A DNA stretch of 64,000 bases, taken from an uncultured cyanobacterium. Lineage in GTDB: Bacteria > Cyanobacteriota > Cyanobacteriia > Cyanobacteriales > Cyanobacteriaceae. Numbering within the stretch: position 1 is the stretch's first letter; each line of letters begins with the position of its first letter. Shown here piece by piece: positions 40,277 to 59,179 of the stretch. The position numbers and the translations under genes are program-made. The stretch is taken from the NCBI GenBank assembly GCA_963749915.1, contig CAVVOP010000008.1, positions 320,001-384,000 of the forward strand, given 5' to 3'. The notes under the pieces were generated by a model, which searched no databases, had not been told where the DNA came from, and was given only the letters and a program-made list of their open reading frames with translations.

Positions 40277-40387
40277 ATCTTAAAATAAAATTTTGAGTGG
40301 ATTTACCAACATATAATATTTAAGCCTTTCTGGATCCATCATAGACTAAAAATCAGGGATATAACTTATAAATATGAAATTTTCAAA

Positions 40388-41146
40388 CTAAAGATTTATG
40401 ATTAAAGGGGATTTTTTTTTGGTGAAAAAATAAGGGGAAGATTGATTTTTATAGGTAAATGTTTTTAAAGAATATCCCCTTAATTCTCTTGGTAACAACA
40501 TATCCCATTGTACCTCGGAAAATATCCATAAGTTACTCATCATGACTAAACCCGTGACCCCAAATTGCCATCCACTAACAGAAGGTAAAATGAGGATGGT
40601 GAGGCCATGAATTATGGCCGCAACAAAAAAAGCTCTCGATCGCATTCCCCAACCTGTGAATAAATAACCGATACTGCTTAAAATTAACCATAATGCGCAC
40701 AGGTGAGATAGCATAAAACCGCAATGGTAAACGACGGCATAATCCGTAATCAATATACCTACAAGCATCAAAAAAACCCAAGTATAAAGCAACCATGAAA
40801 TTTTTTCTAACACTGTCCAAGGGTGAGTTAGAGTGGTCATGGCTATAACGCCAACAAGAGTAATAATAGACCAAAAAAGGGCTTGAGTTGTCCAGCTAAC
40901 AGGGGAAAATTGAGCTGTCATAAAAATTATGGCGGCAATAAATCCCCAAACAGTCATTGCTTGATCTATGCAGGTATAAATTCCTGATAAATTTATGATT
41001 TCTAAGGGTTTGATGATTAAACATTTCATCAATGTCAACTGTTGCGGATTGGTGGAGTATTGCTTTTTTTGTAAAATTGGTTGCCCGGGCTTAAAAAAAT
41101 GCATTATAAAATTAAAGAATGAGATGTATTTTAATATTTGTAACAA
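40388..41146 (-). CDS. hypothetical membrane protein
   Basis: multi-TM ORF; start probably at ATG 41104. Confidence 0.7.
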   Translation of the reverse strand: MLQILKYISFFNFIMHFFKPGQPILQKKQYSTNPQQLTLMKCLIIKPLEIINLSGIYTCIDQAMTVWGFIAAIIFMTAQFSPVSWTTQALFWSIITLVGVIAMTTLTHPWTVLEKISWLLYTWVFLMLVGILITDYAVVYHCGFMLSHLCALWLILSSIGYLFTGWGMRSRAFFVAAIIHGLTILILPSVSGWQFGVTGLVMMSNLWIFSEVQWDMLLPRELRGYSLKTFTYKNQSSPYFFTKKKSPLIINL

Positions 41147-41433
41147 AAGTTAATATTCTCTCATTTTAAAACAAGATGGACAATTTGGTTTTTTTTGGTC
41201 AGGATTGTTTCGACTGTTAATGTATATAATTTCTTTTTTTTCCTTTAAAGACTATTTTTTCTATAGGTTTATTTTTTCCATGGCTTTTTCGTTAATTTTT
41301 AATTTTTAGTCTAAACCCCTGTAATTCAATAATCCTCAAATGTGCTGGGTTCTGGAAATGAAAGATCATAAAAAGATGATAAGATTTTTTCATGATCCCT
41401 AGGATTATTTGAGGATAAAACGAGTTTCTGGTA

Positions 41434-41889
41434 CTAAACCACACCTTGTAAAGTGGGAATAAAATCCTCTCCTATAGTGGTGGCGTATTGGTGTGCGAAT
41501 GCTTCAGGGAAACCCCGATCAATTTCCCTCATGGTTGCCTGTTTAGCTTCGAGTGCAACTTGTAATACTTTCATTGCTTCTTTAGGTTGTCCTTCACCGC
41601 AGAAAAATAAATCCGCAGCGAAGTAGCCATATTCGGGCCAAGTGTGAATTGCAATATGAGATTCCGCTAAAGTAACGGTAGCTGTTACCCCATGGGGACT
41701 AAATTGGTGTACACACATATCTATTAAAGTTGCTTTTCCAGCCTTAATAGCATCTAACAAGCCTTGACGGATTCTTTCTGGATTGTTTAAAAGATCTGCT
41801 GGTGCTTGCCAAGCATCTACCACTAAATGTGTGCCCACTTTGTTCATTCTTGTCAACTCACTCCATACTGTGTTTGCTAATAGGGACAA
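41434..41889 (-). CDS. speD: S-adenosylmethionine decarboxylase proenzyme
   Basis: GTHLVVD, HQFSPHGVT, LAESHIAIHTWPEYG, DLFFCG; start probably MNKVG. Confidence 0.9.
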   Translation of the reverse strand: MSLLANTVWSELTRMNKVGTHLVVDAWQAPADLLNNPERIRQGLLDAIKAGKATLIDMCVHQFSPHGVTATVTLAESHIAIHTWPEYGYFAADLFFCGEGQPKEAMKVLQVALEAKQATMREIDRGFPEAFAHQYATTIGEDFIPTLQGVV

Positions 41890-42169
41890 TTGATTTTAAC
41901 AGATTTTTTTTGTCGGCTCATCCAAAACCCAGTTTATGTTTTTTCGACCGTTGTAGTAAAAGTTGAGTGTGCATAGTAAGGTTAAGATAAGGTAAAGACA
42001 AAAATCACCCGGAGACTAATGATATGCAAATTGACATTTATTTGTCAAGTGTTTATCTAAAGTTACTTACTAATTGGTAATTGTCAATTTGTTAATTGTT
42101 TCCTATTTGCTAAGATAATAGTTCACGAACAAAAACAGAAATTGGTTTCTGGTAAAGAATAAAGATAAA

Positions 42170-43348
42170 ATGCTCAATCCTGATTTAGAAGCTATAGAAC
42201 TTAATAAAGATGAGTATGAGCGCTATGCTAGACATATTATTTTGCCCGAAGTGGGTTTAGAAGGGCAAAAACGTATTAAGGCGGCGAGTGTACTCTGTGT
42301 CGGTACTGGGGGATTAGGTTCCCCTCTGATTCTCTATTTAGCTGCCTCTGGCATTGGTAGAATAGGCATTGTTGATTTTGATGTTGTCGACAGTTCTAAC
42401 CTACAAAGGCAAGTTATTCACGGTACATCATGGGTCGGCAAACCGAAAATTGAGTCCGCCAAACATCGTATTTTAGAAATAAACCCCGATTGTCAAGTGG
42501 ATTTATACGAAACCCGTCTTAGTGCTGATAACGCCTTAGATATAATTGCTCCTTATGATGTAGTCATTGACGGTACAGATAACTTTCCCACCCGTTATCT
42601 CACCAATGACGCTTGTGTATTGTTGAATAAGCCTAACGTTTACGGCTCTATCTTCCGTTTTGAGGGACAAGCCACTGTATTCAACTATGAAGGAGGACCA
42701 AATTATCGTGACTTATATCCCGAACCACCACCGCCGGGAATGGTGCCTTCATGTGCGGAAGGAGGAGTTTTGGGAGTACTCCCTGGTATAATTGGTATTA
42801 TACAAGCTACTGAAACTATTAAAATTATTTTAGGAGCAGATAATACCCTCAGTGGGCGTTTATTACTTTACAACGCTTGGGATATGAAGTTTAGGGAGTT
42901 GAAACTAAGACCTAATCCTGAACGTCCTGTAATTGAAAAATTAATTGATTACGAACAATTTTGTGGTATTCCTCAAGCCCAAGCAGAAGAAGCCAAAGCC
43001 AAAAAAGAACTCCAAGAAATTACTGTTCACGATTTGAAATTCTTATTAGATAGTCACCCTCATGATTATGTTTTAATTGATGTACGCAACCCTAATGAAT
43101 ACGAAATAGCCAAGATTCCGGGATCTGTTTTAATTCCTTTACCAGATATCGAAAATGGTGAGGGTGTTCAAAAAGTGAAAGAATTAGTTGATGTTAGTGG
43201 TCATCGTCTTATTGCCCATTGTAAAATGGGTGGACGTTCAGCTAAGGCTTTACAAATTCTCAAAGAAGCAGGAATCGAGGGCATTAACCTTAAAGGAGGT
43301 ATTTTGGCATGGAGTAAAGAAGTTGATTCTACTGTGCCAGAATACTAA
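42170..43348 (+). CDS. moeB: molybdopterin-synthase adenylyltransferase with rhodanese domain
   Basis: RYARHI, GTGGLGSP, SNLQRQ, DGTDNF, SCAEGGVLG, rhodanese HCKMGGRS. Confidence 0.93.
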   Translation: MLNPDLEAIELNKDEYERYARHIILPEVGLEGQKRIKAASVLCVGTGGLGSPLILYLAASGIGRIGIVDFDVVDSSNLQRQVIHGTSWVGKPKIESAKHRILEINPDCQVDLYETRLSADNALDIIAPYDVVIDGTDNFPTRYLTNDACVLLNKPNVYGSIFRFEGQATVFNYEGGPNYRDLYPEPPPPGMVPSCAEGGVLGVLPGIIGIIQATETIKIILGADNTLSGRLLLYNAWDMKFRELKLRPNPERPVIEKLIDYEQFCGIPQAQAEEAKAKKELQEITVHDLKFLLDSHPHDYVLIDVRNPNEYEIAKIPGSVLIPLPDIENGEGVQKVKELVDVSGHRLIAHCKMGGRSAKALQILKEAGIEGINLKGGILAWSKEVDSTVPEY

Positions 43349-43424
43349 TTTTGGTCCCTATCTTCAATTCTGGGGGAATAGAAAAAATCCTCCAGGATCC
43401 GTCACCCGATTTGGGGGCTAATAT

Positions 43425-44087
43425 TTGATATATAATTTAGTTTTTAAATTTAAACCGATCATGAAAAGCATTTTTAAATTAACAACTCTGATTCTCGTTA
43501 CTCCTTCTTTATTTACCTTCATCTTTCCTGACAACGCTCAAGCTAACCAATTTGACGTTTGTCTCAAGCAATTAACCGCCAGCGGGGTTGACGTGGAAGA
43601 AGCTCAAACCGGTTGTGCAGATGCCTTAGTGCCTAGGGAATTATCGACTTGTGTGCGTACTATTAGTAATAACACAGAGATAACAGCCATCGATGCTCTT
43701 AAAAGTTGCTATCAGGTAAGAAGACCAGTAGATATGGGTAATTGTGTGGTTAGTATTAACAAGAATAGCATTTTAACCCTCGCAACTAAAAGTAATATGG
43801 AGAAAAAAGAAACAGAAGCGACAACAACTAATATGGAGAAAAAAGAAACAGAAGCGACAACAGAAACTAGTCAATTTGCTGCCACCGACGAGAATACCTT
43901 AATAACTAAAGTATCCCCCGTGATGATGGCATTAAACACCTGCCAAGCGAGTCTTTTACCTGCTAGACATTCTGAATGTGTAATCGCTTTATCTCGTACT
44001 CCACAAGTAACCGATCCCACCAAAGCAATGGAAACCTGTTTAAGTGCGGAAGATTTCCCTAGAGATTTATTTCCTTCTTACCAATAG
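43425..44087 (+). CDS. exported Cys-rich hypothetical protein
   Basis: signal peptide from ATG 43461; repeated C...RP.E/D...CV motif; internal 36-nt duplication. Confidence 0.75.
   Translation: MIYNLVFKFKPIMKSIFKLTTLILVTPSLFTFIFPDNAQANQFDVCLKQLTASGVDVEEAQTGCADALVPRELSTCVRTISNNTEITAIDALKSCYQVRRPVDMGNCVVSINKNSILTLATKSNMEKKETEATTTNMEKKETEATTETSQFAATDENTLITKVSPVMMALNTCQASLLPARHSECVIALSRTPQVTDPTKAMETCLSAEDFPRDLFPSYQ
43793..43862 (+). repeat. in-frame 36-nt tandem duplication (NMEKKETEATT x2)
   Basis: TAATATGGAGAAAAAAGAAACAGAAGCGACAACA is identical at 43793 and 43829. Confidence 0.95.
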
Positions 44088-44306
44088 TTAAGGAAGAGGA
44101 AATGGGAAACGGGGAATGGTCAAAATAAATAATTGATAGTTTCTGCATAGGACTTATTTATTTTGATTACCGGTTTTAGTATTCCCTCTCTGCTGAAAAC
44201 GGAGAAAACTTGAACAATTATTCATTAGACCTCTCCAAGAATTACCAAAAACAGGGGTGAAACTATAATGATTTCGTTAATAAATTAGAGTTTCTGGAGA
44301 TTTCTA

Positions 44307-44531
44307 TTATTCTTCGTCCCACTTTTTAACTACAATTATATCACTTACAGGATCTTGCATCGAAAAGCCGAAAGCTAATAATTCTGATTTGAGAAACTTC
44401 CAATCGTCCCCAAATAATAAGGCAATTTTACCGATATTATCATGGGGTTGAATAATTTGTGAATTGACGAGAGAAGATACTTTTTGTTGCAATTTCACCA
44501 TGGGGTGAAGCACTTGCTGCTTATTCCGCAT
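44307..44531 (-). CDS. DUF4327-family protein
   Basis: HPMVKLQ..V.SLV.S.II.P.D.I.KIALLFGD.W. Confidence 0.75.
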   Translation of the reverse strand: MRNKQQVLHPMVKLQQKVSSLVNSQIIQPHDNIGKIALLFGDDWKFLKSELLAFGFSMQDPVSDIIVVKKWDEE

Positions 44532-44750
44532 AAAGTTTTTTACTGTTACTAATACTGTTATAATGATTGTTGGTTAATTATTGGCTTAAGCCTTTACGAG
44601 AATAGCCTTTTATTTGCTGATTCTTATAAATCTCGTGATTAATACTTTGTAGCCAACATGGATGATAAGCAAATTTGAGTAGAAAATTATTGCTTATGAA
44701 TAGTCTATCACATCATAACATATTTTGCTAAGATTTTTTTTTAAAACTCC

Positions 44751-44866
44751 TAAGCCTTTAACGGTAAACTATCAACTATCAACGATTAAAGATGACTTAT
44801 TCTCCTAATTCTCAAGATATTCAAACCCTTTTTAATGACATTGTCATTAAGATTATCAAAAGGTAG
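44751..44866 (+). pseudogene. duplicated 5' fragment of menG/ubiE (left island boundary)
   Basis: 44792-44843 matches 57074-57125 at 46/52 nt (MTYSPNSQDIQTLFNDI vs MSSSPNSQDIQTLFNDI); upstream TAAGCCTTT..ACG..TCAACTATCAAC also shared; frame stops at 44864-44866. Confidence 0.88.
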
Positions 44867-44907
44867 AATATTTAAGATAAGAACAGCACTTCAAAAAATT
44901 TAAACCC

Positions 44908-46089
44908 ATGCCAGAGAATAAACAGCCAGGAAAATACGATGCGGTAATAAAAAGAGTACCTCAAGCTCCTATGTATGGGGCGGTTATAGGAGGAATACAA
45001 GGGGTTAAACGAAGGTTTGAGTCGGCAAAGGATGTAAATTTAAAAGCAGAAATCCTGCAAGAAGCCTTACAGTACGAAAATCAAGGAATAGAGTTTATCT
45101 TACAGGTAGTTCAAGCTACTAATGAACAAGAAATCTTAGCGGTAGCCTATGATTTACTAAAGGAGAAACAAGAGTCAACAATTCAGAATGTATTATTAAC
45201 TCTGAAAAGAAAACATCCTTGGTTAGATTTACCTCAGTTTAGTTTCGACACAGTGAAGGTAAACCGTAAAGGAGAAATCATTAAACGAGAACAAAAAACC
45301 GCCCGTTACTACCGAGAAGATTTAGGAAAGGGTATTAATCTGGATATGGTTTATATTCAAGGTGGTACATTTATGATGGGAAGTCCAGACGGAGAAGGCA
45401 ATGACAGTGATGAAAAACCGCAACATCAGGTGACAGTATCATCATTTTTTATGGCTAAATATCCCGTAACTCAAGCCCAGTGGAAAGCCGTAGCATCATT
45501 ACCTAAAATTGAGAGAGACTTAAAATTAGATCCTTCTCGGTTTAAAGGAGATAATCGCCCTGTAGAAAAAGTTAACCGGTATGATGCCGTAGAATTCTGT
45601 CACCGTTTATCAAAACTAACAGGGAGAGAATACACCCTACCCAGTGAAGCTAAGTGGGAATATAGTTGTCGGGCGGGAACAACCACAACCTTTAACTGTG
45701 GTGAAACCATTACCACTGATTTAGCCAACTATAACGGTACAGATGAATATTACGGCAGTTATGCTGATGAACCGAAAGGGCAGTATAGGCAAGGAACAAC
45801 CTCTGTAGGCTCATTTCCTGCTAATGATTGGGGATTATCGGATATGCACGGCAACGTTTGGGAATGGTGTGCAGATGAATGGCATGGTAATTATAACAAT
45901 GCCCCTACAGATGGTAATGTGTGGACTGGGGGAGAAAGTAATCGTTGTGTAATGCGTGGTGGTTCATGGTTCTACAGCCCGAATAACTGCCGTTGTGCTA
46001 ACCGTCTCAACGACAACCGTGATTGCGACTACTACTGCAACAACGGCAACGGTTTTCGTGTTATGTCTATTTTCGGGAGGACTTCATAG
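44908..46089 (+). CDS. FGE-sulfatase/C-type-lectin-fold protein, DGR target 1
   Basis: MVYIQGGTFMMGS, EKPQH.V, YPVTQAQW, LPSEAKWEYSCRAGT, DMHGNVWEWC, RGGSW...R......NGFRV; AAC/NNC-rich variable 3' end; followed by avd. Confidence 0.9.
   Translation: MPENKQPGKYDAVIKRVPQAPMYGAVIGGIQGVKRRFESAKDVNLKAEILQEALQYENQGIEFILQVVQATNEQEILAVAYDLLKEKQESTIQNVLLTLKRKHPWLDLPQFSFDTVKVNRKGEIIKREQKTARYYREDLGKGINLDMVYIQGGTFMMGSPDGEGNDSDEKPQHQVTVSSFFMAKYPVTQAQWKAVASLPKIERDLKLDPSRFKGDNRPVEKVNRYDAVEFCHRLSKLTGREYTLPSEAKWEYSCRAGTTTTFNCGETITTDLANYNGTDEYYGSYADEPKGQYRQGTTSVGSFPANDWGLSDMHGNVWEWCADEWHGNYNNAPTDGNVWTGGESNRCVMRGGSWFYSPNNCRCANRLNDNRDCDYYCNNGNGFRVMSIFGRTS
45949..46089 (+). repeat. DGR variable region VR1 with IMH-like 3' end
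   Basis: differs from VR2 almost only at codon positions 1-2 of NNC/NNT codons; 3' GGTTTTCGTGTTATGTCTATTTTCGGGAGGACTTCATAG is identical in both. Confidence 0.8.
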
Positions 46090-46185
46090 CCCTTTGTTCT
46101 TTGTCCCTCTTGCCCTTTGTCTTGTATTTCTTTCTTTCTTTCTTTCTTTCTTTCTGTATTTTTTGTAGTTAGTCATGAGAATTTT

Positions 46186-46497
46186 ATGAAAGAATTATCC
46201 GTAATTCAAAAGACCTATGATTTGATAAAATGGTATGTACCAATAATTGAGAGACTACCAAAAACCCATAAGTTTACTATCGGAGATCGAATCATTAATA
46301 ATTTGTACGATTTATTAGAAGAATTAATTAAAGCAAAATATGCCCAAGAAAAACTAACTAGGTTGGAATCCTTAAATAATGTTTTAGACATATTACGGTA
46401 TCAAACAAGATTATTACTGGATTTTGAATTAATCTCTTTAAAACGTTATGAGTATGTTTGTCAACTGTTTCAAGAAATAGGCATAGAAATTGAATAA
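46186..46497 (+). CDS. avd: DGR accessory variability determinant Avd, apparently C-terminally truncated
   Basis: MKELSVIQKTYDLIKWYVP...LPK.HKFTIGDRI...LY.LLE.LI.AKY, LDILRYQTRLL; ends EIGIEIE* without the usual GGW.K end; start placed at ATG 46186. Confidence 0.85.
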   Translation: MKELSVIQKTYDLIKWYVPIIERLPKTHKFTIGDRIINNLYDLLEELIKAKYAQEKLTRLESLNNVLDILRYQTRLLLDFELISLKRYEYVCQLFQEIGIEIE

Positions 46498-46568
46498 ATA
46501 AATGACTAAAATATGGTCACTACAAAATATAATATTGATGAGAGCAAAAGTAAATAGTAATTAAAACT

Positions 46569-48221
46569 ATGGCAGAAAATGGGAAGCAACCGGGAAAATA
46601 TGATGCCGTTATCACCAATAACCCCCACCAGAAATTAATCGAATCCTTAGATTTAAAATTACGCGCTCGTTATCCCTTACTCTACATCGTTGCCGTAGAA
46701 GAAGAACCAGTGGAACAAATTTTAGCCCAAGTAGCCTATCAATCGCAACCCCAACGAGAATTATTAATGTGGGATATTGTCAACGGTTGGAATGATAACA
46801 GTAAAGACAAAAACGCTGTTATGGGGGCATTGATGCGTATTAGTCAAACTGACGGCAATAAACCCTGTATATTTGTCCTCAAAGATTTAAACTTTATCCT
46901 CAAACAACCTGATAGTGCCAGTAACGCTCCCGTCATCAGGGCTTTAAAGAATTTAGGCAAAGAGCTTAAATATCGCCGTCAAACCTTGATTATAACTGGT
47001 CATACTGCGGTTGTACCTACGGACTTATCGGAAGAAATCACCGTCATTGACTTTCCCCTTCCTGAGATGACCGAAATAGATTACTTAATTAGAGAGTTAG
47101 TAGTACCAGAAAAACTGAACCTCAGTGGTTTAGGCAAAGAGCAATTAGTGAAAGCCTGTCTAGGATTGAGTCGTACCCGTATCCGTAGGGTTTTAGCTTC
47201 CGCCCTCGCCGCTAAACAGGAGGTAAATGAGGGTGATATTGACATTGTTTTAGAAGAGAAAAAACAAGCCATCCGTCAAACGGGTATCCTTGAGTTTTAT
47301 TCCTCCCATGAATCCTTGAAAAGTGTCGGCGGTTTGGATAGACTCAAACAGTGGTTACAAATCAAAAAGGATAGTTTTACCGAAAAAGCCCGTAAATATG
47401 GCATTCCTAACCCGAAAGGCTTATTTTTAGTCGGTATTCAAGGTACAGGAAAATCTTTATCGGCTAAAACCATCGCTAATGAATGGCGTTTACCCATGCT
47501 ACGGTTAGATACAGGACGATTATTTGGGGGCATTGTCGGCGAAAGTGAAAGTAAAACCCGTCAAATGATTCAATTAGCAGAAGCCATTTCACCCTGCGTA
47601 TTGTGGATGGATGAGATTGATAAAGCCTTTGGTAACATTTCAGGGGGCGGTGACGGAGATTCAGGCACATCTCGCCGTGTTTTTGGTACTTTAATTACTT
47701 GGATGCAGGAAAAAACTAGCCCTGTTTTCATCGTTGCCACCGCGAATAATGTGGAGATTTTACCCGCCGAATTACTGAGAAAAGGACGTTTTGACGAGAT
47801 ATTTTTCATTAACTTACCTAACCATCGAGAGCGCATGGAAATCTTTAAAGTTCATTTACAACGGTTACGCCCTCAACGACTCAGGGATTTTGACTTAAAA
47901 GAATTAGCTACTGCCACAGAAGAATTTAGTGGTGCAGAAATTGAGCAAGTTATTATTGATGCCATGAGTTTCGCCTTTGCCGATGAAAGTGCAGAAGCAA
48001 GGGATTTTACTAATACAGATATATTAACCGCCTGTGGTGATACCGTACCATTGGCAAGGGTAGCCACCAAACAGATTGAAGAGTTAAAACAATGGGCAGT
48101 GAAAACAGGTGCTAAAACTGCTTCTAAGGATATTGAATTAGAAAAGGAATTAGAAACTTATCGCCAACAAAAGGGCATTCGCCAGAGTCAATATCTCGAT
48201 GTAGATCCTCCCCAAAGTTAA
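46569..48221 (+). CDS. Ycf46-like AAA+ ATPase with N-terminal KQPGKYDAVI leader
   Basis: degenerate N-terminal ATPase domain (IFVLKD), Walker A GIQGTGKS, Walker B LWMDEIDK, VATAN, LLRKGRFDE. Confidence 0.9.
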   Translation: MAENGKQPGKYDAVITNNPHQKLIESLDLKLRARYPLLYIVAVEEEPVEQILAQVAYQSQPQRELLMWDIVNGWNDNSKDKNAVMGALMRISQTDGNKPCIFVLKDLNFILKQPDSASNAPVIRALKNLGKELKYRRQTLIITGHTAVVPTDLSEEITVIDFPLPEMTEIDYLIRELVVPEKLNLSGLGKEQLVKACLGLSRTRIRRVLASALAAKQEVNEGDIDIVLEEKKQAIRQTGILEFYSSHESLKSVGGLDRLKQWLQIKKDSFTEKARKYGIPNPKGLFLVGIQGTGKSLSAKTIANEWRLPMLRLDTGRLFGGIVGESESKTRQMIQLAEAISPCVLWMDEIDKAFGNISGGGDGDSGTSRRVFGTLITWMQEKTSPVFIVATANNVEILPAELLRKGRFDEIFFINLPNHRERMEIFKVHLQRLRPQRLRDFDLKELATATEEFSGAEIEQVIIDAMSFAFADESAEARDFTNTDILTACGDTVPLARVATKQIEELKQWAVKTGAKTASKDIELEKELETYRQQKGIRQSQYLDVDPPQS

Positions 48222-48278
48222 AGTGCTAAAATTGAATTATCGTAGAGATTTCCTTTACATGCAAATAAATATTTTAGT

Positions 48279-48767
48279 TTATTCTCCCGCTTGTTCAATG
48301 GCACAATCTATAAGATTTTGACTTAAATAAATATGAGACTTTTTCATGTTATCGATACAGTTACGGATAGAAATATTATATCCTTTCTGTTTGGCTTTCA
48401 GAAGTATGCCGAGGCAACCCGTAAGAGAAAGTCCATTGAGTCTTGCTATTCTTCTGCCTATGGCTTCATCAATGCAAACTGTCGTAATTTTTTTATCTAA
48501 GGCGAGTTGAATTACGGAAGCCTCTCCCAAATCTAAGGAATTTAGTAAAAAGGGTGAAATCTGGAGAGGTGATGATTGTTTTTGTAAGTAAGTATCGCTA
48601 TTAAATGCAGAAATAGCAAAACCAATTTTACCCCCAGCTAATATTTCTTGACAGACTTCATAGGGTACTAAAACTTGTTTGTAAAGATAGCTCAAAATTT
48701 TTAAATCCCCCAATGCGGAAACTAAAGCTATTATGGGGGAAGTATTGATAACAATAGTGTTAGGCAT
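48279..48767 (-). CDS. PIN-domain toxin (DUF3368-like)
   Basis: IVINTSPIIAL, V.VP.EV..EI, LDLGEASVI.LA, IDE..GR..A...GL...G.LGIL. Confidence 0.85.
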   Translation of the reverse strand: MPNTIVINTSPIIALVSALGDLKILSYLYKQVLVPYEVCQEILAGGKIGFAISAFNSDTYLQKQSSPLQISPFLLNSLDLGEASVIQLALDKKITTVCIDEAIGRRIARLNGLSLTGCLGILLKAKQKGYNISIRNCIDNMKKSHIYLSQNLIDCAIEQAGE

Positions 48768-49011
48768 TGGCTAAGTCTGATAATAATTCTTCTGGGGTTA
48801 AGTCAATCATTGATACACCATAATCAGCTAGTTTGAGTAAAAATGTTACTCTATCAACTCCTAATAATATTCCCGCCATTCCTGATGAAATTCGTTTCAT
48901 TTCAAATAGTTTTACTACCATTGCCCATTTTGCTTCTTGTTCAAATTCTTGAGGTGTTTGATTTAAAGCGTCGGGAAAAGTTGACGGATATTCGATAGTT
49001 ATTTGTGCCAT
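48760..49011 (-). CDS. UPF0175-family antitoxin
   Basis: VKLFEMKRISSGMAG.LLGVDRVTFL..L; overlaps the PIN toxin start. Confidence 0.85.
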   Translation of the reverse strand: MAQITIEYPSTFPDALNQTPQEFEQEAKWAMVVKLFEMKRISSGMAGILLGVDRVTFLLKLADYGVSMIDLTPEELLSDLANA

Positions 49012-49069
49012 CTGTCTTTAAATTTGATGTTTTTCACTCTATTTTACTCCCCTCACATCAATTTTACCT

Positions 49070-49292
49070 ATCGGCGGTAACAGACTTTTATAACGCATTG
49101 GGGCAATTTTTAAGTTATCGGTTGGTTTTAAGCCAAATTGAACCAAATAGAGCCTTATATTTAGCTATTCCTTTAGATACATATTTAGAGCTATTTGAAT
49201 CGGATTTTGGAGAATTGGTGATGAAAGAATATGAATTAAAATTAATTATCTATAATTCTAATAATGGAGATTTAACTCAATGGATAAATTAA
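49070..49292 (+). pseudogene. xisH: XisH C-terminal half
   Basis: SAVTDFYNALGQFLSYRLVL...EPNR.LYLAIP...Y...F...QWIN; N-terminal half missing; overlaps xisI start. Confidence 0.8.
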
Positions 49293-49615
49293 GCTTTTAT
49301 CGAGAAGCTATTAAGAGATTATTAATCGAATATACCGCATCGGAAAAATATGATGATGATTGCGAATCTCAATTAATTTTTGATGAAAAACAAGACCATT
49401 ATTTATGGTTAGAATTAGGTTGGGATGACTATAAAAGAATTTATTATACTGTAATTCACTTTGATATTAAAGATGGTAAGATATGGTTACAGCAAAATGC
49501 CACTGACTTAAACCCTGCGGAGGATTTAATTGAATTAGGAGTCAACCGAGAGGATATTATTTTAGGTTTACAACCCCCTTATAAACGCCCCTATACTAAT
49601 TATGGAGTGGCTTAA
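49280..49615 (+). CDS. xisI: XisI family protein
   Basis: MDKL..YR..I, QLIFD...DHY, GW, IHFDIKDGKIWLQ.N.T, DIILG.QPP..R.YT.YGVA. Confidence 0.9.
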   Translation: MDKLSFYREAIKRLLIEYTASEKYDDDCESQLIFDEKQDHYLWLELGWDDYKRIYYTVIHFDIKDGKIWLQQNATDLNPAEDLIELGVNREDIILGLQPPYKRPYTNYGVA

Positions 49616-49648
49616 CCATTCATTACTAAATTATTTATCGGATCAACT

Positions 49649-50022
49649 ATGTCACATTTTACTACTATCAAAGTTCAAATCAAAAACGGCGAGATTTTAC
49701 ATAAAACCTTACAAGAGTTGGGTTATACCGTCGAAACTAATACCAACGTCAGAGGCTATCAAGGCATAAAAACCGAAGCTGAATATGTCATTCGTCAAAA
49801 TAATGGTTATGATTTAGGCTTCCGCCGTCAAGGGGATAATTATGAGTTAGTGGCGGACTTTTGGGGTGCTAAAATTGACCAGACTAATTTATTAATGACA
49901 TCTCTCAGAAATATGCTCATTATACTTTGATGGAAGAGGTGGAAAAGCAAGGTTTTAATATCGAAGAAGAGCAAACTTTGGAAGACGGCACTTTGCGGTT
50001 AGTCGTAGGTAGATGGGTTTAA
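49649..50022 (+). pseudogene. DUF1257 (Ycf35-like) protein, frameshifted
   Basis: MSHFTTIKVQI...YDLGF...YELVADFW; adding one T near 49888-49890 restores FINDISQKYAH...GF.IEEEQTLEDGTLRLVVGRWV*. Confidence 0.8.
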
Positions 50023-50245
50023 CTCAGTTGGAAATAAAGTTATTGATGGAGATAAGTAACAAAAGTAATAAGTAATAAGTAATGGGTAATGAGTCTTTCA
50101 ACTTGTCCTCGGTGTCTCGTCTTCACCATTTTTCTTCTATCGAACTGAGCTAACCGAGCAGTATTGGGAGATGTCTAATATAATTTATTCTAAATTCGAG
50201 AATGTTGTCTTTAGTTATAAGTATCTTTACAATCTTCTTCGCATA

Positions 50246-50277
50246 AAGCCCATCGCCTTTAGGCATGGGAATGTCAA
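50246..50277 (+). mobile_element. IS200/IS605-family end hairpin remnant
   Basis: AAGCCCATCGCCTTTAGGCATGGGAATGTCAA: imperfect hairpin ending in TCAA, typical of IS605-group right ends. Confidence 0.6.
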
Positions 50278-50330
50278 GCCTAATTGTGATATGATCTTGG
50301 TTTAGGACTTAATTAAAAGATAATTTTTGT

Positions 50331-50562
50331 ATGTCGGCAAAAGATAAGTTTCACCAAGCCGTAAAAAATGCTTTAATCAAGGAACAATGGAAAATTACCC
50401 ATGATCCTTTATTATTGACTTTGACAATGCCCGATTCAAATTGATTTAGGGGCAGAGTCTTTGATAGCGGCGGAGAAATCTTCTCGTAAAATTGCCGTTG
50501 AAGTCAAAAGTTTCCTTGGTAATTCAACTGTCTATGAGTTTCATTTAGCCGTAGGGCAATAA
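50331..50562 (+). pseudogene. xisH: XisH N-terminal half, frameshifted
   Basis: MSAKDKFHQAVKNALIKEQWKITHDPL / QIDLGAESLIAAEK...KIAVEVKSFL....VYEFHLAVGQ* across two -1 shifts. Confidence 0.85.
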
Positions 50563-50618
50563 AAAACCATAGATTATAATATAATTCTAAATTAAAAATA
50601 AATGAAACACTAACGCCC

Positions 50619-51737
50619 ATGCCAGAGAATAAACAGCCAGAGAAATACGATGCGGTGATAAAAAGAGTACCTCAAGCTCCTATGTATGGGGCGGTTATAG
50701 GTGGAATACAAGGGGTTAAACGAAGTTTTGAGTCGGCACAGGATGTTAATTTAAAAGCAGAAATCCTCCGAGAAGCGTTACAGTACGAAAATCAAGGAAT
50801 CGAGTTTATTCTACAAGTATTAGAATCACAGGATTTTGAGTTACAGTGGAAAGCCTATGAGATACTAAAGAATAGACCTGAAACTCAAATCAAGGCAAAA
50901 TTCGATAATTGTTTGCCTGTCTTCAGTTTCGACACAGTGAAGGTAAACCGTAAAGGAGAAGTAATTAAACGAGAACAAAAAACCGCCCGTTACTACCGAG
51001 AAGATTTAGGAAAGGGTATTAATCTGGATATGGTTTATATTCAAGGTGGTACATTTATGATGGGAAGTCCACACGGAGAAGGTTATAGTGATGAAAAACC
51101 GCAACATCGGGTGACAGTACCATCATTCTTTATGGCTAAATACCCCGTCACTCAAGCCCAGTGGAAAGCCGTAGCATCTGAGAGAAACTTAGAATTAAAT
51201 CCTTCTGAGTTTAAAGGAGATAATCGCCCTGTGGAAATGGTTAACTGGTATGATGCGGTAGAATTCTGTCACCGTTTATCAAAACTAACAGGGAGAGAAT
51301 ACACCCTACCCAGTGAAGCCAAGTGGGAATATAGTTGTCGGGCGGGAACAACCACAGCCTTTAACTGTGGTGAAACCATTACCACTGATTTAGCCAACTA
51401 TGACGGTACAGATGAATATTACGGCAGTTATGCTGATGAACCGAAAGGGGAGTATAGGGAAGGAACAACCCCTGTAGGGTCATTTCCTGCTAATGATTGG
51501 GGATTATATGATATGCACGGTAACGTCTGGGAATGGTGTGCAGATGAATGGCATGAAGATTATAACAATGCCCCTACAGATGGTAATGTGTGGACTGGAG
51601 GAGAAAGTAATTGTAGTGTAATGCGTGGTGGTTCATGGCACGACGGGCCGAGTGGCTGCCGTTGTGCTAGCCGTCTCAGCTACGACCCCTACAACTACGG
51701 TTTTCGTGTTATGTCTATTTTCGGGAGGACTTCATAG
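50619..51737 (+). CDS. FGE-sulfatase/C-type-lectin-fold protein, DGR target 2
   Basis: near-identical paralogue of 44908-46089 with a different linker and a different variable 3' end. Confidence 0.9.
   Translation: MPENKQPEKYDAVIKRVPQAPMYGAVIGGIQGVKRSFESAQDVNLKAEILREALQYENQGIEFILQVLESQDFELQWKAYEILKNRPETQIKAKFDNCLPVFSFDTVKVNRKGEVIKREQKTARYYREDLGKGINLDMVYIQGGTFMMGSPHGEGYSDEKPQHRVTVPSFFMAKYPVTQAQWKAVASERNLELNPSEFKGDNRPVEMVNWYDAVEFCHRLSKLTGREYTLPSEAKWEYSCRAGTTTAFNCGETITTDLANYDGTDEYYGSYADEPKGEYREGTTPVGSFPANDWGLYDMHGNVWEWCADEWHEDYNNAPTDGNVWTGGESNCSVMRGGSWHDGPSGCRCASRLSYDPYNYGFRVMSIFGRTS
51618..51737 (+). repeat. DGR variable region VR2
   Basis: aligns to VR1 with codon-position-1/2 substitutions; 21 nt shorter. 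Confidence 0.78.
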
Positions 51738-51814
51738 CCCTTTGTGCTTTGTCCCTCTTGCCCAATGTCTTGTATTTCTTTCTTTCTATCTTGTATTTTT
51801 TGTAGTTAGGGTTT

Positions 51815-51940
51815 GCCCCCTAAATCCCCCAATTCTGGGGGAAAGAACAATTGAACTCCCTCATATTTGGGGACTGGGGGGCTTATCCGAACAGTATTGG
51901 GAAAAATCCCCCTTACCAAGGGGGATTTAGGGGGATCAAA
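51815..51940. repeat. REP-like palindromic repeats
   Basis: CCCCCTAAATCCCCCAATTCTGGGGG and ATCCCCCTTACCAAGGGGGATTTAGGGGGAT; related sequence near 43368-43420. Confidence 0.7.
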
Positions 51941-52081
51941 GACTTTGAAAACAGGTTCTTAGGGTTTGAATTAGACAAATAATACTTATTAAATATGGTT
52001 TAGTAAATCAATTGTGATACAGTTTAAGTCAATTTTATTTCTTTTACTCTTAATTCTTTACTCTATCTTCATCAGTGAAAT

Positions 52082-53023
52082 CTATGATTGGTGCAAGATT
52101 TGAGTATGAGAATTTAACCAGTTAATTAAATCATCGAGACATTGAAAATCAAAAATAGCATCCCCTAAATCTTCAATTTGGCATAAGGATAAATCATTAA
52201 TTTGCCTTTCCAACTCAGGAGAAAACTCCCCGAAACGTTTTTTAATTTGACGCTTAACGAGATTTTGTTCACCTTGGTGTAACCCACGCTGTAAGCCGAT
52301 TTCAATGCCTTCTTCCATCCAACTGGTGACAATTTTCATAATTTGTTCTTCCTCTGCTAATCCTATTTGTTTTAATTCGGTTTCAAATTCTTGGGTTTCC
52401 GTTAGATTTAATTTTAAATAAGTATCCACAAATCCTGAAATTAACTCTATTCTAGCGGGATCTAAACTTAAAGTAGCTAACATTCTCAGACATTCTAATT
52501 TTACCTTAGCTCTTTCCTCTGATTTAAAGTCCATTTTTGCCATTAAAGCGGCGGCGATAGGATTGGGTTGATTTAAAAATTGTCGCCAATTAAGTCGATT
52601 TAACTGGATAGTCGTGTAGTTAAATTCGAGGATTTTTTTATCAGGAAATGTAACTAAATATTAATTTGTTTCCTCTCGTTTTGGCTTATCATAGGAAAAG
52701 ATAACTACAGGATAAATTGGTAAACGATATTTAGCATCTAAACGAGCAAAATAATGAAACATTCGCCGTTCAAATTCGCTCTGATTATAGGCTTGATTTT
52801 CAATATGGATGAGGAAAAAACGGTTTTCTTCTTGCCATTTTACTTGGGCGAGTAAGTCGATTTTTCGTTTATCTCCTGCGGTTACATCGATAAAAACTTC
52901 TTCAGGTAAAAAAGTTAAACTATCTTTTGATATATATTGTAAAATATCGGGAATAAATAATTCAATAAATTCCCAGAAAAATGTCTGGATTAATTCTTTA
53001 AAAAGACGGTCATGATCTATCAT
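52082..53023 (-). pseudogene. Rpn/YhgA-like (DUF4351 C-terminus) putative nuclease split by an in-frame TAA
   Basis: DHDRLFKELI.TFF.EF, IDLL, LIHIENQ; the same frame continues after TAA 52661-52663 (YLVTFPDKKILEFNY...NPIAAALMAKM) to a DUF4351-like end. Confidence 0.85.
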
Positions 53024-53126
53024 ATTTGTTCATAACTTATAGGTTGATGATTTTTAGTAATAATAATATCTTTCCCTTTAAAAGAAGTATAATTAAAAAT
53101 GTATAAAATCAAAAACAAAGTCACCC

Positions 53127-53339
53127 ATGGCTGAATATCAACGAATAGAGTACCAAATCGGCAAAGACGGTAAAATCACAGAAAGGGTAATTGATGCCAG
53201 TGGTAATAGTTGTCTGCAACCTACCCAAGCATTAGAAGAAGCATTAGGAGAAATAGAATCAAGGGAATTACTCCCTGAATATTACGAAGGAGAAGAAAAC
53301 TTAACCACCGATAATATTCAACGATCGAAATCATTGTAA
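53127..53339 (+). CDS. DUF2997-family protein
   Basis: IEY.IGKDGKITE.V..ASG.SC...T..LEEALG.I..RE..PEYY; usual partner of DUF1257 and Ycf46-like ATPase. Confidence 0.8.
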   Translation: MAEYQRIEYQIGKDGKITERVIDASGNSCLQPTQALEEALGEIESRELLPEYYEGEENLTTDNIQRSKSL

Positions 53340-53403
53340 GCTAGTTCACATCTCAATACTGCTTGGTTAGTCGCTCAAGTTATTTTGTCCGCCCCCTAAA
53401 TCC

Positions 53404-53510
53404 CTGACAAGGGTAGGTTTTTTACATTTGGGTTGAGACAAGACAAGGAAGGAACGAAGGACAGCAGACAAGGGAGATAGTAGAAACGAAAAATGGTCTT
53501 TTTAGCCATT
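53404..53510 (+). mobile_element. isolated IS end (same TIR as 8038)
   Basis: CTGACAAGGGTAGGTTTTTTACA is identical to 8038-8060 and is followed by GACAAGG repeats. Confidence 0.75.
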
Positions 53511-53554
53511 TATGTATTATTTGTAACAAAATGTTTCTTAAACGATTCCCCTCT

Positions 53555-54126
53555 TCCCAATACTGCTCGGTTAGTGGTAAAAACGTTACGGTGAGGTTAA
53601 AGTAATGAGTAATAAGTAATGAGTAATAAGTAATCAGTAATAAGTAATGAGTAATAAGTAATGAGTAATAAGTAAATATTTATTGTTTATAGAGACAGAA
53701 GATTTTGCTATCAGAATTATTAAAGCTTATTCCGAACTGAACAAAAGGAACTTTGATGATGCAGCTAAAGTTTTATCAAAACAATTTTTAAGAAGTGGGA
53801 CATCAATTGGGGCTAATTGTTCAGAAGCAAAATATGCACAGTCGAAGAAGGATTTATTAACAAATATTCTATAGCTTTAAAAGCAGCAAATGAGACCCTT
53901 TATTGGATAAAAATAATGATTAAATCAGAGCTAGTATCACAATCTAAATTTCAAAAAATGATAGAAGAGAATGAAAGAATTATTAAAATATTAATGAGTT
54001 CAATCAATAAATTAAAAGAAAAACAATCTAGTTAAATTTTTATTCATTACTCATTACTCATTACTCATTACTCATTACTTCATCTTCACAGTAAGATTTT
54101 CGGGCAAATCCCTCGCAGTATTGGGA
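53555..54126 (+). mobile_element. TIR-bounded cassette carrying a four-helix-bundle gene between inverted heptamer arrays
   Basis: 12-bp TIR TCCCAATACTGC/GCAGTATTGGGA; (AGTAATR)x10 at 53601-53675 and (CATTACT)x5 at 54045-54079. Confidence 0.8.
53683..54035 (+). pseudogene. four-helix-bundle protein (23S rRNA IVP family), frameshifted
   Basis: FAIRIIK...LSKQFLRSGTSIGAN.SEA..AQSKKD / FINKYSIALK.ANET.YW; one T missing near 53853. Confidence 0.85.
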
Positions 54127-54757
54127 CGCAACCACCAAGACACCGCAGAACAAGCCAACGCCGAACCAGCCACACAACGGAAAGAAACCACGGGAACAAA
54201 CCCCCAACGAAAGAACAGCTTCTTTTCACCCGTTCTCATTTTTCACCGTGAACTTTGATCTGTGCGCAAGGCAAAAATAAATAAATGGAGCGTAGCCGTT
54301 ACGAAGACTATAACTAAGTACAACTAAACTATGGCGGCGGAGCGACTTCAATTAAGGTGTTGCCTAGTCGCACCACAGAACGGGTATACTAGAAAAGCGG
54401 TCGTTCATTATCCCCACAGTTCCAGCCACGCAGTGACCTAGGGTCGGAAACAGTAGCCTTTGAGATAAACCGAAGGCAAAAAGACTATGTTTTTAACTGT
54501 ATTTCAATCTAAATATTAATATATATTAAGAAAAATTAACTAAAAAAATCTCTGATTAATTAAATCTTATTAAATGATTAGAATATGAGGAAAGTTCAGT
54601 ATATTTACTGTTGTTAGTAAATATAAAATTGGGAACTATAAGTCTATAGCAAACTAGATTTATACTCTGACTTATTACTCATTACTCATTACTCATTACT
54701 CATTACTCATTACTTCATCTTCACAGTAAGATTTTCGGGCAAATCCCTCGCAGTATT
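54044..54757 (+). repeat. perfect 79-bp direct repeat (54044-54122 and 54679-54757)
   Basis: T(CATTACT)x5 TCATCTTCACAGTAAGATTTTCGGGCAAATCCCTCGCAGTATT occurs twice. Confidence 0.92.
54075..54239 (-). pseudogene. possible adenine-free small ORF, truncated by the MITE arm
   Basis: MRTGEKK-LFFRWGFVPVVSFRCVAGSALACSAVSWWLRP-(MITE-derived NTARD...); codons 8-39 contain no A. Confidence 0.4.
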
Positions 54758-54828
54758 TATCTGCACTATTTTTAAGGTATTAAGGCTCAAATATTTTTAC
54801 AGTTTTTTAACATTAAATAGGATAAACA

Positions 54829-55395
54829 ATGGATTTTAATTATCTATTAACAAGCATATTTTTATGGCTAATAATTAGCCTTTTATTATTGACAGTTTTT
54901 GCTTCCTCATCACCTTCTAATCAAGGTAAATTTAAAGATTTTAAAGACAATAAATCTCAGGATTTAGATAACGATTCGGGTAAAGAAGAAATCATCGCCC
55001 TTCAACAACAATGCCAAAGATTAAGAGAGGAATTAGAAGCCCAATCTAACCAGTTAAAAGATGATTTTCGTAGTGACACTTTTGAACAATTACAGCCTTT
55101 ATTAACTAACTATCCCACCGCCCGTGAGATGGCAAAAGCTAAACCAGATTTACCCGCTAAAAATCTAGTATCTTTGTTCACATCCTTAGAAAACTTGTTA
55201 GAAAGTTGGGGTTATGAAACCATTGGCACACCGTGGGAAGAAGTTAATTATAATCCTCAAATTCATCAAGGTGACAGTGATGATATTGAAGTAGGGGAAT
55301 CGGTTTATATCCGTTTTGTAGGCTACCGTGACGGCGATAATATTCTTTATCCTGCGAAAGTAAGTCTCAATCTTCCTCCCAATTTAAAAAGTTAA
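54829..55395 (+). CDS. membrane-anchored GrpE-like nucleotide exchange factor
   Basis: N-terminal TM helix, coiled coil, C-terminal IG...V.YNPQIHQ...GY..GD.IL.PAKVS GrpE-type beta domain; directly upstream of Hsp70. Confidence 0.75.
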   Translation: MDFNYLLTSIFLWLIISLLLLTVFASSSPSNQGKFKDFKDNKSQDLDNDSGKEEIIALQQQCQRLREELEAQSNQLKDDFRSDTFEQLQPLLTNYPTAREMAKAKPDLPAKNLVSLFTSLENLLESWGYETIGTPWEEVNYNPQIHQGDSDDIEVGESVYIRFVGYRDGDNILYPAKVSLNLPPNLKS

Positions 55396-55429
55396 TTTCT
55401 AATTCCTAATTCCTAATTCCTAATTATTT

Positions 55430-57028
55430 ATGACTACTGTAGCGATTGATTTTGGCACAAGTAACACCGTTGTTAGTATTATCGAACCCGATACCAAACA
55501 AGCAAAATCCCTCCGTTTTGAGAAAATGTCGAGGGTATTTCGGATGAAACTTAATAACGGCTCAGTGTCAGAAATTCCCGTCATCCCTAGCTTAGTGTTT
55601 ATCAAAGAAGGACATGAATTAATATTAGGAGAACAAGTGCGCACTGGTCGGTTAGGATGTAGTAAGCCTGAACGATTTTTTAAAGCCTTTAAAAGAGATT
55701 TAGCCGCCGAATATCGCTCCCCTACGAAGATAATAGAAGGTAAAGAATACCCATCAGAAGCAGTAGCAGAAATATTTTTAAAAGAAATTTGGCAACAACT
55801 GAAATTACAACATTTAACTCCCTCTCAAGTAATATTTACCGTGCCAGTAGGAGGCTTTGAAAGTTACTCGAATTGGTGTCGTGACTTAGCCACAGGATTA
55901 GGCATTGAAAAAATCCAATTAGTCGATGAATCCACCGCCGCCGCCTTCGGTTATGCCGTTAAAAAGCCCGGTGCTTTAGTTTTAGTAGTGGACTTTGGAG
56001 GGGGTACATTAGACTTAAGTTTAGTGCGTACTGTCGGCACTTCCCCAAAATTAAAAGAATTAAAAGGAGAGGTTTTAGCGAAAACTCAAGCCTATGTGGG
56101 AGGAGAAGATATTGATATTTGGTTAATGGAAGATTACTTGCAAAAACAGGGTATTTCTAAAAACGATTTAAGTAGTGTTAGTTGGCAGAATTTATTAGAA
56201 ATAGCCGAGCGTCTTAAGATACAGTTATCCTTTAAAGAAGAAGCAAAGGAAAGTTGGTTAGATGAGGAAACCTTTACTTCCTATGATATTGCTTTAAATC
56301 GACCACAACTCAAAGAAATATTAGAAACTCAACAACTATTACCTCAATTACGGGATTGTCTCGATGAAGTTATTCAGATGTCAATGGGTAAGGGCATCAA
56401 TAAAAAACACATTGAGAAAGTAGTTTTAGTAGGCGGCAGTTGTTTAATTGCATCTGTAAGAGAATTAATTACTTCTTATTTTGGACCAGAAAAAGTCCTG
56501 ATCAATAAACCCTTTGAAGCGGTGTCTCAAGGGGCTTTAACTGTTGGTTTATTAGAAAACGTAGATGACCATTTATACCATAGCTACGCCCTTCGTACAT
56601 GGAATCCCTTGACTCAGGAAAATGATTATGATCCTTTATTTCCATCAGGCATACAATATCCCTGTGAATTAGAACATCCTTTAGTTCTTCAATGTGCCAA
56701 TAATGGACAAGATGCCATTTACCTTGATATTGGGCAAGTGGCAGAAATGGGAAAAGCGGAGTTAAGTTATGATGCTTCGGGTAAAATGACCAGTGGTATG
56801 GTTAAATCTAAAACTACTTACAAATCCCTCACCTATGAACTAGACTGGCAAGGAAATGTCGTCAAATCCGCTTGTATCGCTAAATTACATCCTCTTGGCA
56901 CTGTGGGAAAAGATCGTCTTAAACTGCATTTGGAAGTGGATGAGGGGCGAATGTTATTGACTACTGTTACGGATATTCTCACCCAACAAGTATTAGTCTA
57001 TAAGAAAGCGATCGCTCGCCTTGATTAA
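55430..57028 (+). CDS. atypical Hsp70-family protein
   Basis: AIDFGTSNT, TVPVGG, ESTAAA, VVDFGGGTLDLS, GGEDID, AERLKIQLS, VLVGGS; short divergent C-terminus without a lid. Confidence 0.9.
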   Translation: MTTVAIDFGTSNTVVSIIEPDTKQAKSLRFEKMSRVFRMKLNNGSVSEIPVIPSLVFIKEGHELILGEQVRTGRLGCSKPERFFKAFKRDLAAEYRSPTKIIEGKEYPSEAVAEIFLKEIWQQLKLQHLTPSQVIFTVPVGGFESYSNWCRDLATGLGIEKIQLVDESTAAAFGYAVKKPGALVLVVDFGGGTLDLSLVRTVGTSPKLKELKGEVLAKTQAYVGGEDIDIWLMEDYLQKQGISKNDLSSVSWQNLLEIAERLKIQLSFKEEAKESWLDEETFTSYDIALNRPQLKEILETQQLLPQLRDCLDEVIQMSMGKGINKKHIEKVVLVGGSCLIASVRELITSYFGPEKVLINKPFEAVSQGALTVGLLENVDDHLYHSYALRTWNPLTQENDYDPLFPSGIQYPCELEHPLVLQCANNGQDAIYLDIGQVAEMGKAELSYDASGKMTSGMVKSKTTYKSLTYELDWQGNVVKSACIAKLHPLGTVGKDRLKLHLEVDEGRMLLTTVTDILTQQVLVYKKAIARLD

Positions 57029-57073
57029 GCCTTTTACGATTAAATATTAATTGTCAACTATCAACTATTAAAA

Positions 57074-57775
57074 ATGAGCTCTTCTCCTAATTCCCAAGAT
57101 ATTCAAACTCTTTTTAATGATATTGCACCAGTTTATGATCAAATGAATGATTGGTTAAGTTTCCGTCTCCACCGTATTTGGAAGTTAATGACCGTAAAAT
57201 GGAGTAGTCCACAACCTTATGAAACTGCGTTAGATCTCTGTTGTGGTACTGGTGACTTAACTTTTTTAATGGCAAAACAACTCAAAAAAGGGAGAGTTAT
57301 TGGCGTTGATTTTTCCTCGCAGTTGTTGGCAGAGGCACAAAAAAAACAAAAATTTAAGTCTTTAAATAGTGAAATTCGGTGGTTAGAAGCAAATGTTTTA
57401 AGTTTGCCTTTTGACGATAATTCTTTTGATTGTGCCACTATGGGTTATGGGTTGAGAAATGTTACGGATATTTGTGCTTGTTTACAGGAAATTCAACGAG
57501 TTTTAAAACCTAATAGTAAAGTAGCTATTTTAGATTTTCATAAACCTACACAGGATTGGGTTGCCAATAGTCAAAAATGGTATTTAGATAACGTGGTAGT
57601 GAAAATTGCGGATTTTTTAGGCACTCAATCAGAATATGCTTATATTTATCCTAGTTTAGAGCGTTTTCCTAATGGCGAAACCCAAATTCAACTAGGTTTA
57701 AATGCTGGTTTTAGTGCGGGTATCCATTATCCTTTATTTGGTGGTACAATGGGAGTTTTAGTATTAACTAAATAG
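57074..57775 (+). CDS. menG: 2-phytyl-1,4-naphthoquinone/demethylmenaquinone methyltransferase
   Basis: F..IAPVYDQMND.LS...HRIWK, LDLCCGTGD, GVDFS, GYGLRNV, YAYI..S. Confidence 0.92.
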   Translation: MSSSPNSQDIQTLFNDIAPVYDQMNDWLSFRLHRIWKLMTVKWSSPQPYETALDLCCGTGDLTFLMAKQLKKGRVIGVDFSSQLLAEAQKKQKFKSLNSEIRWLEANVLSLPFDDNSFDCATMGYGLRNVTDICACLQEIQRVLKPNSKVAILDFHKPTQDWVANSQKWYLDNVVVKIADFLGTQSEYAYIYPSLERFPNGETQIQLGLNAGFSAGIHYPLFGGTMGVLVLTK

Positions 57776-59152: not shown

Positions 59153-59179
59153 AGATCAAATTGACAGATATCAAATTTT

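Follow-up and report, generated by a model that had tools for sequence, protein, structure and literature searches.

In DGRs, a reverse transcriptase (RT) acting together with Avd copies a template RNA with errors at adenines, and the cDNA replaces the variable region (VR) of the target gene. The closest described relatives of the locus analysed here are the cyanobacterial clade 5E DGRs, which, in the available parts of their descriptions, resemble it in having FGE/CLec targets with a 3' VR, an avd gene, paralogous targets that are dispersed or remote, and loci at which the RT or the template has been lost (PMC7517822; PMC10907252). According to the same parts of these papers, an RT or template that is lost at some loci is kept in other cells (PMC10907252), and remnant DGR targets without an RT are on record (PMC7517822). 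In-frame indels beside AAC runs have been reported for about 7% of DGRs, and they were ascribed to slippage in the available parts of the respective papers (PMC5758913; PMC12875486). A DGR-diversified FGS is also found in EAD-coupled conflict systems, including the DGR-linked VMAP ternary systems, which, in the available part of their description, combine a chaperone-like NTPase core with a small helical domain of which many proteins carry a copy, both close to the core and away from it (PMC7159879).

The window, a stretch of 64,000 nucleotides from an uncultured cyanobacterium, contains a DGR part that derives from the clade 5E DGRs and works like them, and that is in itself ordinary, known biology. 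It differs from them in the N-terminal domain (N-domain) of its targets, which is of neither the kinase, the caspase nor the vWA type, and in that no cognate RT or template is present in the assembly. The variable regions VR1 and VR2 are the 3' ends of two paralogous genes on the + strand, DGR target 1 (44908..46089) and DGR target 2 (50619..51737). Target 1 consists of an N-terminal adaptor-like domain (residues 1 to about 90) and an FGE-sulfatase/CLec domain (Pfam PF03781, E 1e-52), and target 2 has the same architecture (PF03781, E 9e-56). The CLec (FGE-type) fold is shared with Treponema TvpA and Bordetella Mtd; TvpA was matched by a target at the sequence level (E 5e-18), and the predicted structure of target 2 resembles TvpA, a known DGR target (2y3c; E 3e-17, rmsd 2.5). 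Unlike these proteins, the window targets have no evident signal peptide, as judged by eye, and carry the adaptor-like domain. Directly 3' of the VR1 gene an avd gene starts (46186..46497, + strand; NCBIfam NF033474, 123 bits, cut-off 80), which the initial annotation had missed. Since VR1 and VR2 are the ends of paralogous FGE/CLec genes and avd follows the first of them, they are identified as DGR variable regions. The avd gene is truncated after codon 101, and its match to the intact form of Avd, which has 126 residues in two related contigs (P0007/P0008), stops there, leaving a loose end at 46488. It is highly probable (about 0.86) that both VRs are DGR-derived, that their template has been lost, that VR1 is live in relatives, and that VR2 is frozen.

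The core of VR1 (45970..46050, + strand; 27 codons) is hypervariable in sequence and in length among near-identical proteins. The VR2 core (51639..51698, + strand) is frozen and, with 20 codons, 7 codons shorter than that of VR1; its in-frame 21-nt deletion had been overlooked before, as had the VR of one more sibling, the third, on contig C5. The core lengths of 60-87 nt contrast with the 72 nt found in 103 of 116 motifs of related loci. The invariant, IMH-like 3' end of the VR (46051..46089, + strand) has three copies in the genome, and none of them lies in a template. Two bases are changed in the pyrimidine tract downstream of VR2, and a hairpin was found neither 3' of VR1 nor 3' of VR2, as is also the case for the cognate target on contig C23.

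VR1 and VR2 have an AAC-type substitution spectrum at the 3' ends of CLec domains. The codons that were quoted for both VRs in the initial annotation are all present in the sequence, and its count of 16 mismatches, 15 of which are at codon positions 1-2, was reproduced by hand. When the gap was placed differently, in an alignment guided by the proteins, 18 mismatches were counted over 20 codons (9/8/1 at codon positions 1/2/3), with 12 codons changed non-synonymously and none synonymously. Over the 306 aligned codons of the gene bodies the mismatches are distributed 19/7/27, and Fisher tests of VR versus body gave p values of 6e-4 for the position bias, 2e-3 for the non-synonymous excess and 3e-8 for the mismatch density, which a scripted comparison found to be about five times higher in the VRs than in the gene bodies. 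Furthermore, C occupies the third position of 19 of the 27 VR1 codons, versus 47 of 353 codons of the gene body.

Near-identical proteins, namely an intact Avd, target 1 and target 2, are encoded by two ENA contigs of 14,677 and 75,268 bases, and comparison of the three versions separates the two VRs. Within VR1, 12/26, 12/27 and 13/26 residues differ between versions, in contrast to 7/363, 26/362 and 29/361 residues of target 1 outside VR1 in the same pairs, and the length of VR1 is 27, 26 or 29 residues. In VR2, 0 of 20 residues differ in all three pairs, the three versions being possibly close kin, and target 2 shows 2-4 differences outside VR2. At the protein level, none of 68 variable residues lies outside the 15 that are reachable from AAC (p 4e-8 at an expected fraction of 0.22); this test omitted the scaffold positions as well as codon 3, which is Lys in P0002 and varies in all three bases among the DNA copies. 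Sediment contigs agree in 4 of 14 listed runs, and in these contigs avd continues intact past 46488. Among the X4 pieces, the 202 nt that cover VR1 contain 23 differences, versus 7 in about 2020 nt of the other seven listed pieces, and a second VR1 allele with 20 differences and a 6-nt gap in 171 nt is present in X2. Outside VR1 the divergence is 3-4% in two X2 pieces and 16% in a further one, which shows that other strains contribute. Population hypervariability limited to the products of adenine codons was found for VR1 and not for VR2. As VR1 is hypervariable and VR2 identical in relatives, VR1 appears to be the live target wherever the cassette is whole, and VR2 appears to be frozen.

The template that had been inferred in the initial annotation has to be revised. 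The DGR origin on which it was built is supported by the CLec fold, the adjacent avd, the hypervariability of VR1 among near-identical proteins and the lack of any residue outside the AAC-reachable set (0/68). The predicted template itself is absent from the assembly, and it was wrong at two codons. One is the CTC codon, which had been thought to be invariant; it is GGC in the C5 sibling and is replaced by R or N in two related target-1 proteins, and therefore it is an AAC-type position. The other is the third codon after Trp, for which AAN had been proposed; it is AGC, GGG or CTA in the copies of the genome and Lys in P0002, and because all three bases vary it is assigned as AAA. In addition, the AAC run at the 3' end of the proposed template has no fixed length among the products.

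A cognate template was not detected in the assembly by BLAST, by an adenine-tolerant scan, by a 3'-signature search or by an AAC census, a partly sensitive method that recovered the template of contig C1 and missed that of C23. No template was found with exact patterns in metagenome and genome collections, from which near genomes may be missing, and none in plasmids; a translated-template search gave no candidates. The genome has three copies of the 29-nt 3' signature, each of them within a VR, and neither the signature nor the template was found in any of 400 other genomes of the order (up to 3 mismatches). The genome contains three DGR-type RT genes, none of which is in the window. The C1 RT is intact and is accompanied by avd, template and target. 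The C23 RT contains two frameshifts and has its own template as well as targets on C23 and C21, and the RT on C8 near 888 kb is truncated, having lost the 3' end together with the greater part of its template. These RTs are 71-85% identical to their matches, and the named ones among these, like all homologs with names, are cyanobacterial. An RT from the two related contigs was not present among the best 120 of 2309 matches. As the assembly contains no template repeat and the window no RT serving the cassette, VR1 and VR2 are classed as orphaned DGR targets, with a 3' VR on a CLec-fold target and the accessory avd, and not as a complete DGR.

It is improbable that a cognate RT and template are present and were merely unassembled or misassembled, so that both genes would be live targets. 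The distribution of the assembly over 34 contigs and the intact avd of the relatives would be in line with this explanation, but the break is located inside a 940-kb contig, the 3' part of avd was not found when the whole assembly was searched, VR2 is invariant, and other DGR parts of the genome are decayed, too. Assembly errors as the source of the frameshifts in DGR genes were considered and are not supported. As none of 22 conserved genes tested is broken, the damage to the DGR genes is read as real decay.

Very unlikely, and clearly more so, is an action in trans of the C23 or C1 templates on VR1 and VR2. Action in trans has been documented in the available part of a study on cyanobacterial DGRs (PMC10907252), RT and avd are intact on C1, and the C23 template resembles the VRs in its Cys-Arg-Cys-Ala core and in the style of its 3' end. 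Nevertheless, the VRs of the window and of C5 have 11-20 non-A mismatches to the C1 or C23 template, while the cognate template/VR pairs of the same genome have 2-3; in a control of 35 avd loci, 44 of 46 template/VR pairs of the same length had at most one. Moreover, all three siblings have retained the 3' end specific to their family, which would be replaced in retrohoming from these templates. The least probable explanation does without any DGR and ascribes the pattern to diversifying selection of the ordinary kind and to gene conversion among the paralogs. Non-synonymous differences are found in the paralog bodies, too (21 non-synonymous versus 13 synonymous codons in the CLec body), and mosaic contigs exist, but avd is adjacent, third positions are conserved, no residue falls outside the AAC-reachable set and the variable segment is sharply bordered.

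For the DGR origin with loss of the template, the following course of events can be envisaged. One cyanobacterial DGR very probably wrote both VR1 and VR2, from an intact cassette that probably had the order target 1, avd, RT and template, as on contig C1 and at many related loci. A deletion starting at 46488 may then have removed the end of avd, the RT and the template in this genome, which would have frozen both VRs. Slippage of the RT in the long AAC run could account for the in-frame length variants, and target 2 may be an older duplicate with a fixed variant. VR2 could have been frozen by selection for a useful variant, by loss of homology after the deletion, or by the two changed bases of the pyrimidine tract. 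The locus and its near-identical relatives display a live target, a frozen duplicate and the loss of the machinery.

The DGR biology is already known, and the new part is the cluster in which the targets reside. Between the two targets lies a CDC48-type AAA+ ATPase (46569..48221, + strand; CDC48/PAN/FtsH-like class; an accessory paralog), which we take to be Ycf46-like and the first residues of which equal the short peptide of the targets. It is followed by a DUF1257 gene (49649..50023, + strand), which has a 1-nt deletion near 49884 compared to locus L038. Downstream of target 2, all on the + strand, are a DUF2997 gene (53127..53339), which is an additional copy adjoining the Hsp70-like gene, a GrpE-like protein with a hydrophobic N-terminus (54829..55395; a weak NCBIfam match with E 0.005, below the cut-off, and an Atlas score of 0.91 to a GrpE-family cluster), and a divergent Hsp70-like protein (55430..57028), the marker gene of the cluster. 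No vWA domain was detected in the cluster genes scanned and no Rfam family in 40000-60000; promoter-like and terminator-like sites were near shuffle levels, and no RNA holder was seen among the matches listed.

With the Hsp70-like gene as bait, 26 cyanobacterial loci were retrieved, and within the available flanks 24 contain N-domain genes, 22 the GrpE-like gene, 21 DUF2997, and 16 DUF1257 and the AAA ATPase. The nearest named loci are those of Geminocystis (L126, L127), and cluster loci also occur in Nostoc-type strains. Of 91 genomes of the order, which as kin are not independent, 33 have the N-domain, 28 the Hsp70-like gene, 25 both and 55 neither. DUF2997 is present in all 91, and, by a reading of the coordinates, 25 of the 28 have an additional copy next to the Hsp70-like gene. 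The repertoires comprise 0-9 variable genes per locus. In two genomes of the same genus (L038, L039) the cluster is found at another chromosomal site, and the same two positions carry the N-domain with pentapeptide-type repeats or an unassigned region, not CLec. Toxin-antitoxin genes neighbour the cluster. A published description was not found in the literature searched, mostly open-access main texts (PMC8195603 and PMC10907252 included), and PADLOC gave no system match, only generic ATPase and Hsp70 matches.

The N-domain common to both targets comprises about 85-90 residues, and it is modelled as a conserved peptide (1-25, low confidence) followed by three helices. A fold search returned no PDB match at E 0.001, an Atlas match of 0.87 points to a GUN4-N/ARM cluster but is no more than a lead, and Pfam matches were sub-threshold (HEAT_2 in 11 and GUN4_N in 8 of 33 members). 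'ARM repeat' and 'GUN4-like' N-termini have been listed among DGR targets in the available part of PMC7517822, and these may include the N-domain of the window. In this genome the N-domain is confined to the island, while N-domain genes are dispersed in some of the 91 genomes. A profile search identified 92 N-domain ORFs in the 26 loci. The C-termini of 37 scanned ORFs are WD40 (19, weak matches counted), LRR (8, weak), GUN4 (5, one with WD40), pentapeptide (1), FGE (1), or HEAT or unassigned, and no enzymatic effector was seen among them. The combination with CLec occurs in 49 of the best 120 homologs of target 1. No core protein carries a full N-domain; the ATPases of three loci (the window, L038 and L039) have only the short peptide. 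That this peptide is a general ATPase feature was rejected, as it is carried by 1 of 17 listed ATPase ORFs. In quick trees the N-domains of the window group with non-CLec N-domains (pentapeptide-fused, unassigned) of L126 (SH-aLRT 99), and the CLec label must have changed at least three times. An AU test against a single CLec clade gave p 0.037, which is weak because the group was named after the first tree and only 83 columns were available. Of neighbouring copies in these trees, the window pair is closest to each other and the Nostoc copies group across genomes.

Eukaryotic F-box receptors join a short N-terminal adaptor to a WD40 or LRR substrate-binding domain, and many paralogs serve one core machine. 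The layout of the cluster repertoire resembles this by analogy, and there is no ubiquitin system here. Tentatively, the targets can be viewed as ligand-binding receptors that the N-domain couples to a machine of the Hsp70/GrpE-like pair and AAA+/DUF1257/DUF2997. Still more cautiously, they may be the DGR-diversified receptors of an undescribed, widespread cyanobacterial chaperone-coupled recognition system. In such a system an F-box-like protein repertoire would serve the Hsp70/GrpE-like pair and the accessory Ycf46-like module, with a common N-terminal docking domain and interchangeable WD40, LRR, pentapeptide, GUN4 or hypermutable CLec binding domains. The receptors could hand invader proteins to the chaperone/unfoldase, with no toxic effector involved. 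In this lineage, a DGR may have been grafted onto the host adaptor, which would have resulted in one frozen and one evolving receptor, including loop-length variation. In function, the targets may be adaptor-sensors that feed the chaperone machine, probably in defence.

Instead of defence, the cluster may serve regulation or the quality control of proteins, as in tetrapyrrole or stress sensing; we rate this serious alternative as possible, short of an even chance. GUN4 fusions occur and fit signalling, the DUF2997 copy in every genome points to housekeeping roots, the scanned fusions are free of enzymatic effectors, PADLOC recognised no system, and signalling roles have been argued for cyanobacterial DGR targets in the available part of PMC7517822. 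On the other hand, a patchy presence in 28 of 91 genomes, the turnover of the repertoires, the use of a DGR, the toxin-antitoxin neighbours, the differing chromosomal sites and the decay observed here speak against it; patchiness, repertoire turnover, DGR use, these neighbours and decay suggest a defence role.

By analogy, the cluster operates in the manner of the EAD-coupled conflict systems as characterised in the available part of PMC7159879, with WD40, LRR, pentapeptide, GUN4 and FGS modules in common, but it departs from them in its core and in the lack of a fusion to it. The N-domain is a small, non-enzymatic, mostly helical domain. It is found in numerous copies on proteins of various kinds, which are linked to the core and correlate with its presence. 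No copy is fused to a core component, no known EAD family of Pfam was found among 33 N-domain members, and the core is not of the MoxR-vWA, GTPase or peptidase type. In the same part of that paper the EAD core is MoxR-vWA or GTPase, in contrast to the CDC48-type AAA, Hsp70/GrpE-like pair and DUF1257/DUF2997 of the cluster, and the Hsp70-GrpE theme appears in GAP1-N2 GTPase systems of actinobacteria and firmicutes (PMC7159879). Here a cellular DGR target is associated with a particular conserved core, one that employs fixed repeat-domain receptors as well, so that the sensor hypothesis is open to direct testing by knockout and pull-down. A copy of the 5' end of menG/ubiE (44758..44843, + strand), 84% identical to 57040-57125, probably marks the left border of the gene island.

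A miniature relic of the cassette is found on another contig of the same genome (C5:190088-190510, minus strand), in which the upstream region and the start of target 1 directly abut a third VR variant. The avd gene is represented in this relic by its first 38 codons, which are joined to the third VR variant. Mosaic alleles are present in sediment contigs, which join parts of target 1 and target 2 (window positions 45240/50925), and other sediment contigs run on through XisH at 50560, not into target 2. The short peptide at the start of the targets also opens the ATPase of the window (46569-46620) and the ATPases of the same cluster in two genomes of the genus (L038 and L039); Nostoc-type ATPases do not have it. 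Both VRs are followed by a pyrimidine-rich tract (46090-46170 and 51738-51800), which does not form a hairpin, and a similar tract follows the DGR target on contig C23.

Inserted genes are present among the core genes at 48279-49615, 50333-50560, 52082-53023 and 53683-54035. The inserts include a DUF3368/UPF0175 pair, an XisH fragment and XisI, and an XisH pseudogene, and further inserts are a split Rpn/DUF4351 gene and a split 23S-IVP four-helix gene. L038 and L039 carry different inserts between the core genes. Between 53402 and 54757 there are dispersed repeats that resemble MITEs, along with 7-nt tandem arrays, arranged in inverted orientation, and these repeats have many copies in the genome.

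The genome contains further DGR loci. A complete one, with target, avd, RT and template, is located at C1:22900-24950; its target is nSTAND-like, as judged by eye, and the target VR contains a +1 frameshift, which is possibly a DGR-made indel. At C8:888069-889241 (minus strand, locus L042) a deletion has fused a DGR RT straight onto the 3' tail of its own template, and an IS1-like element is found at the 5' end of the RT. The third consists of an RT with template and cognate targets (C23:398-2920 and C21:764150-765700). Its RT is interrupted by two frameshifts and no avd lies next to it, while the template contains a 1-nt insertion. The two cognate targets, on C23 and C21, have a repeat insert in common, which lies within their CLec domain.
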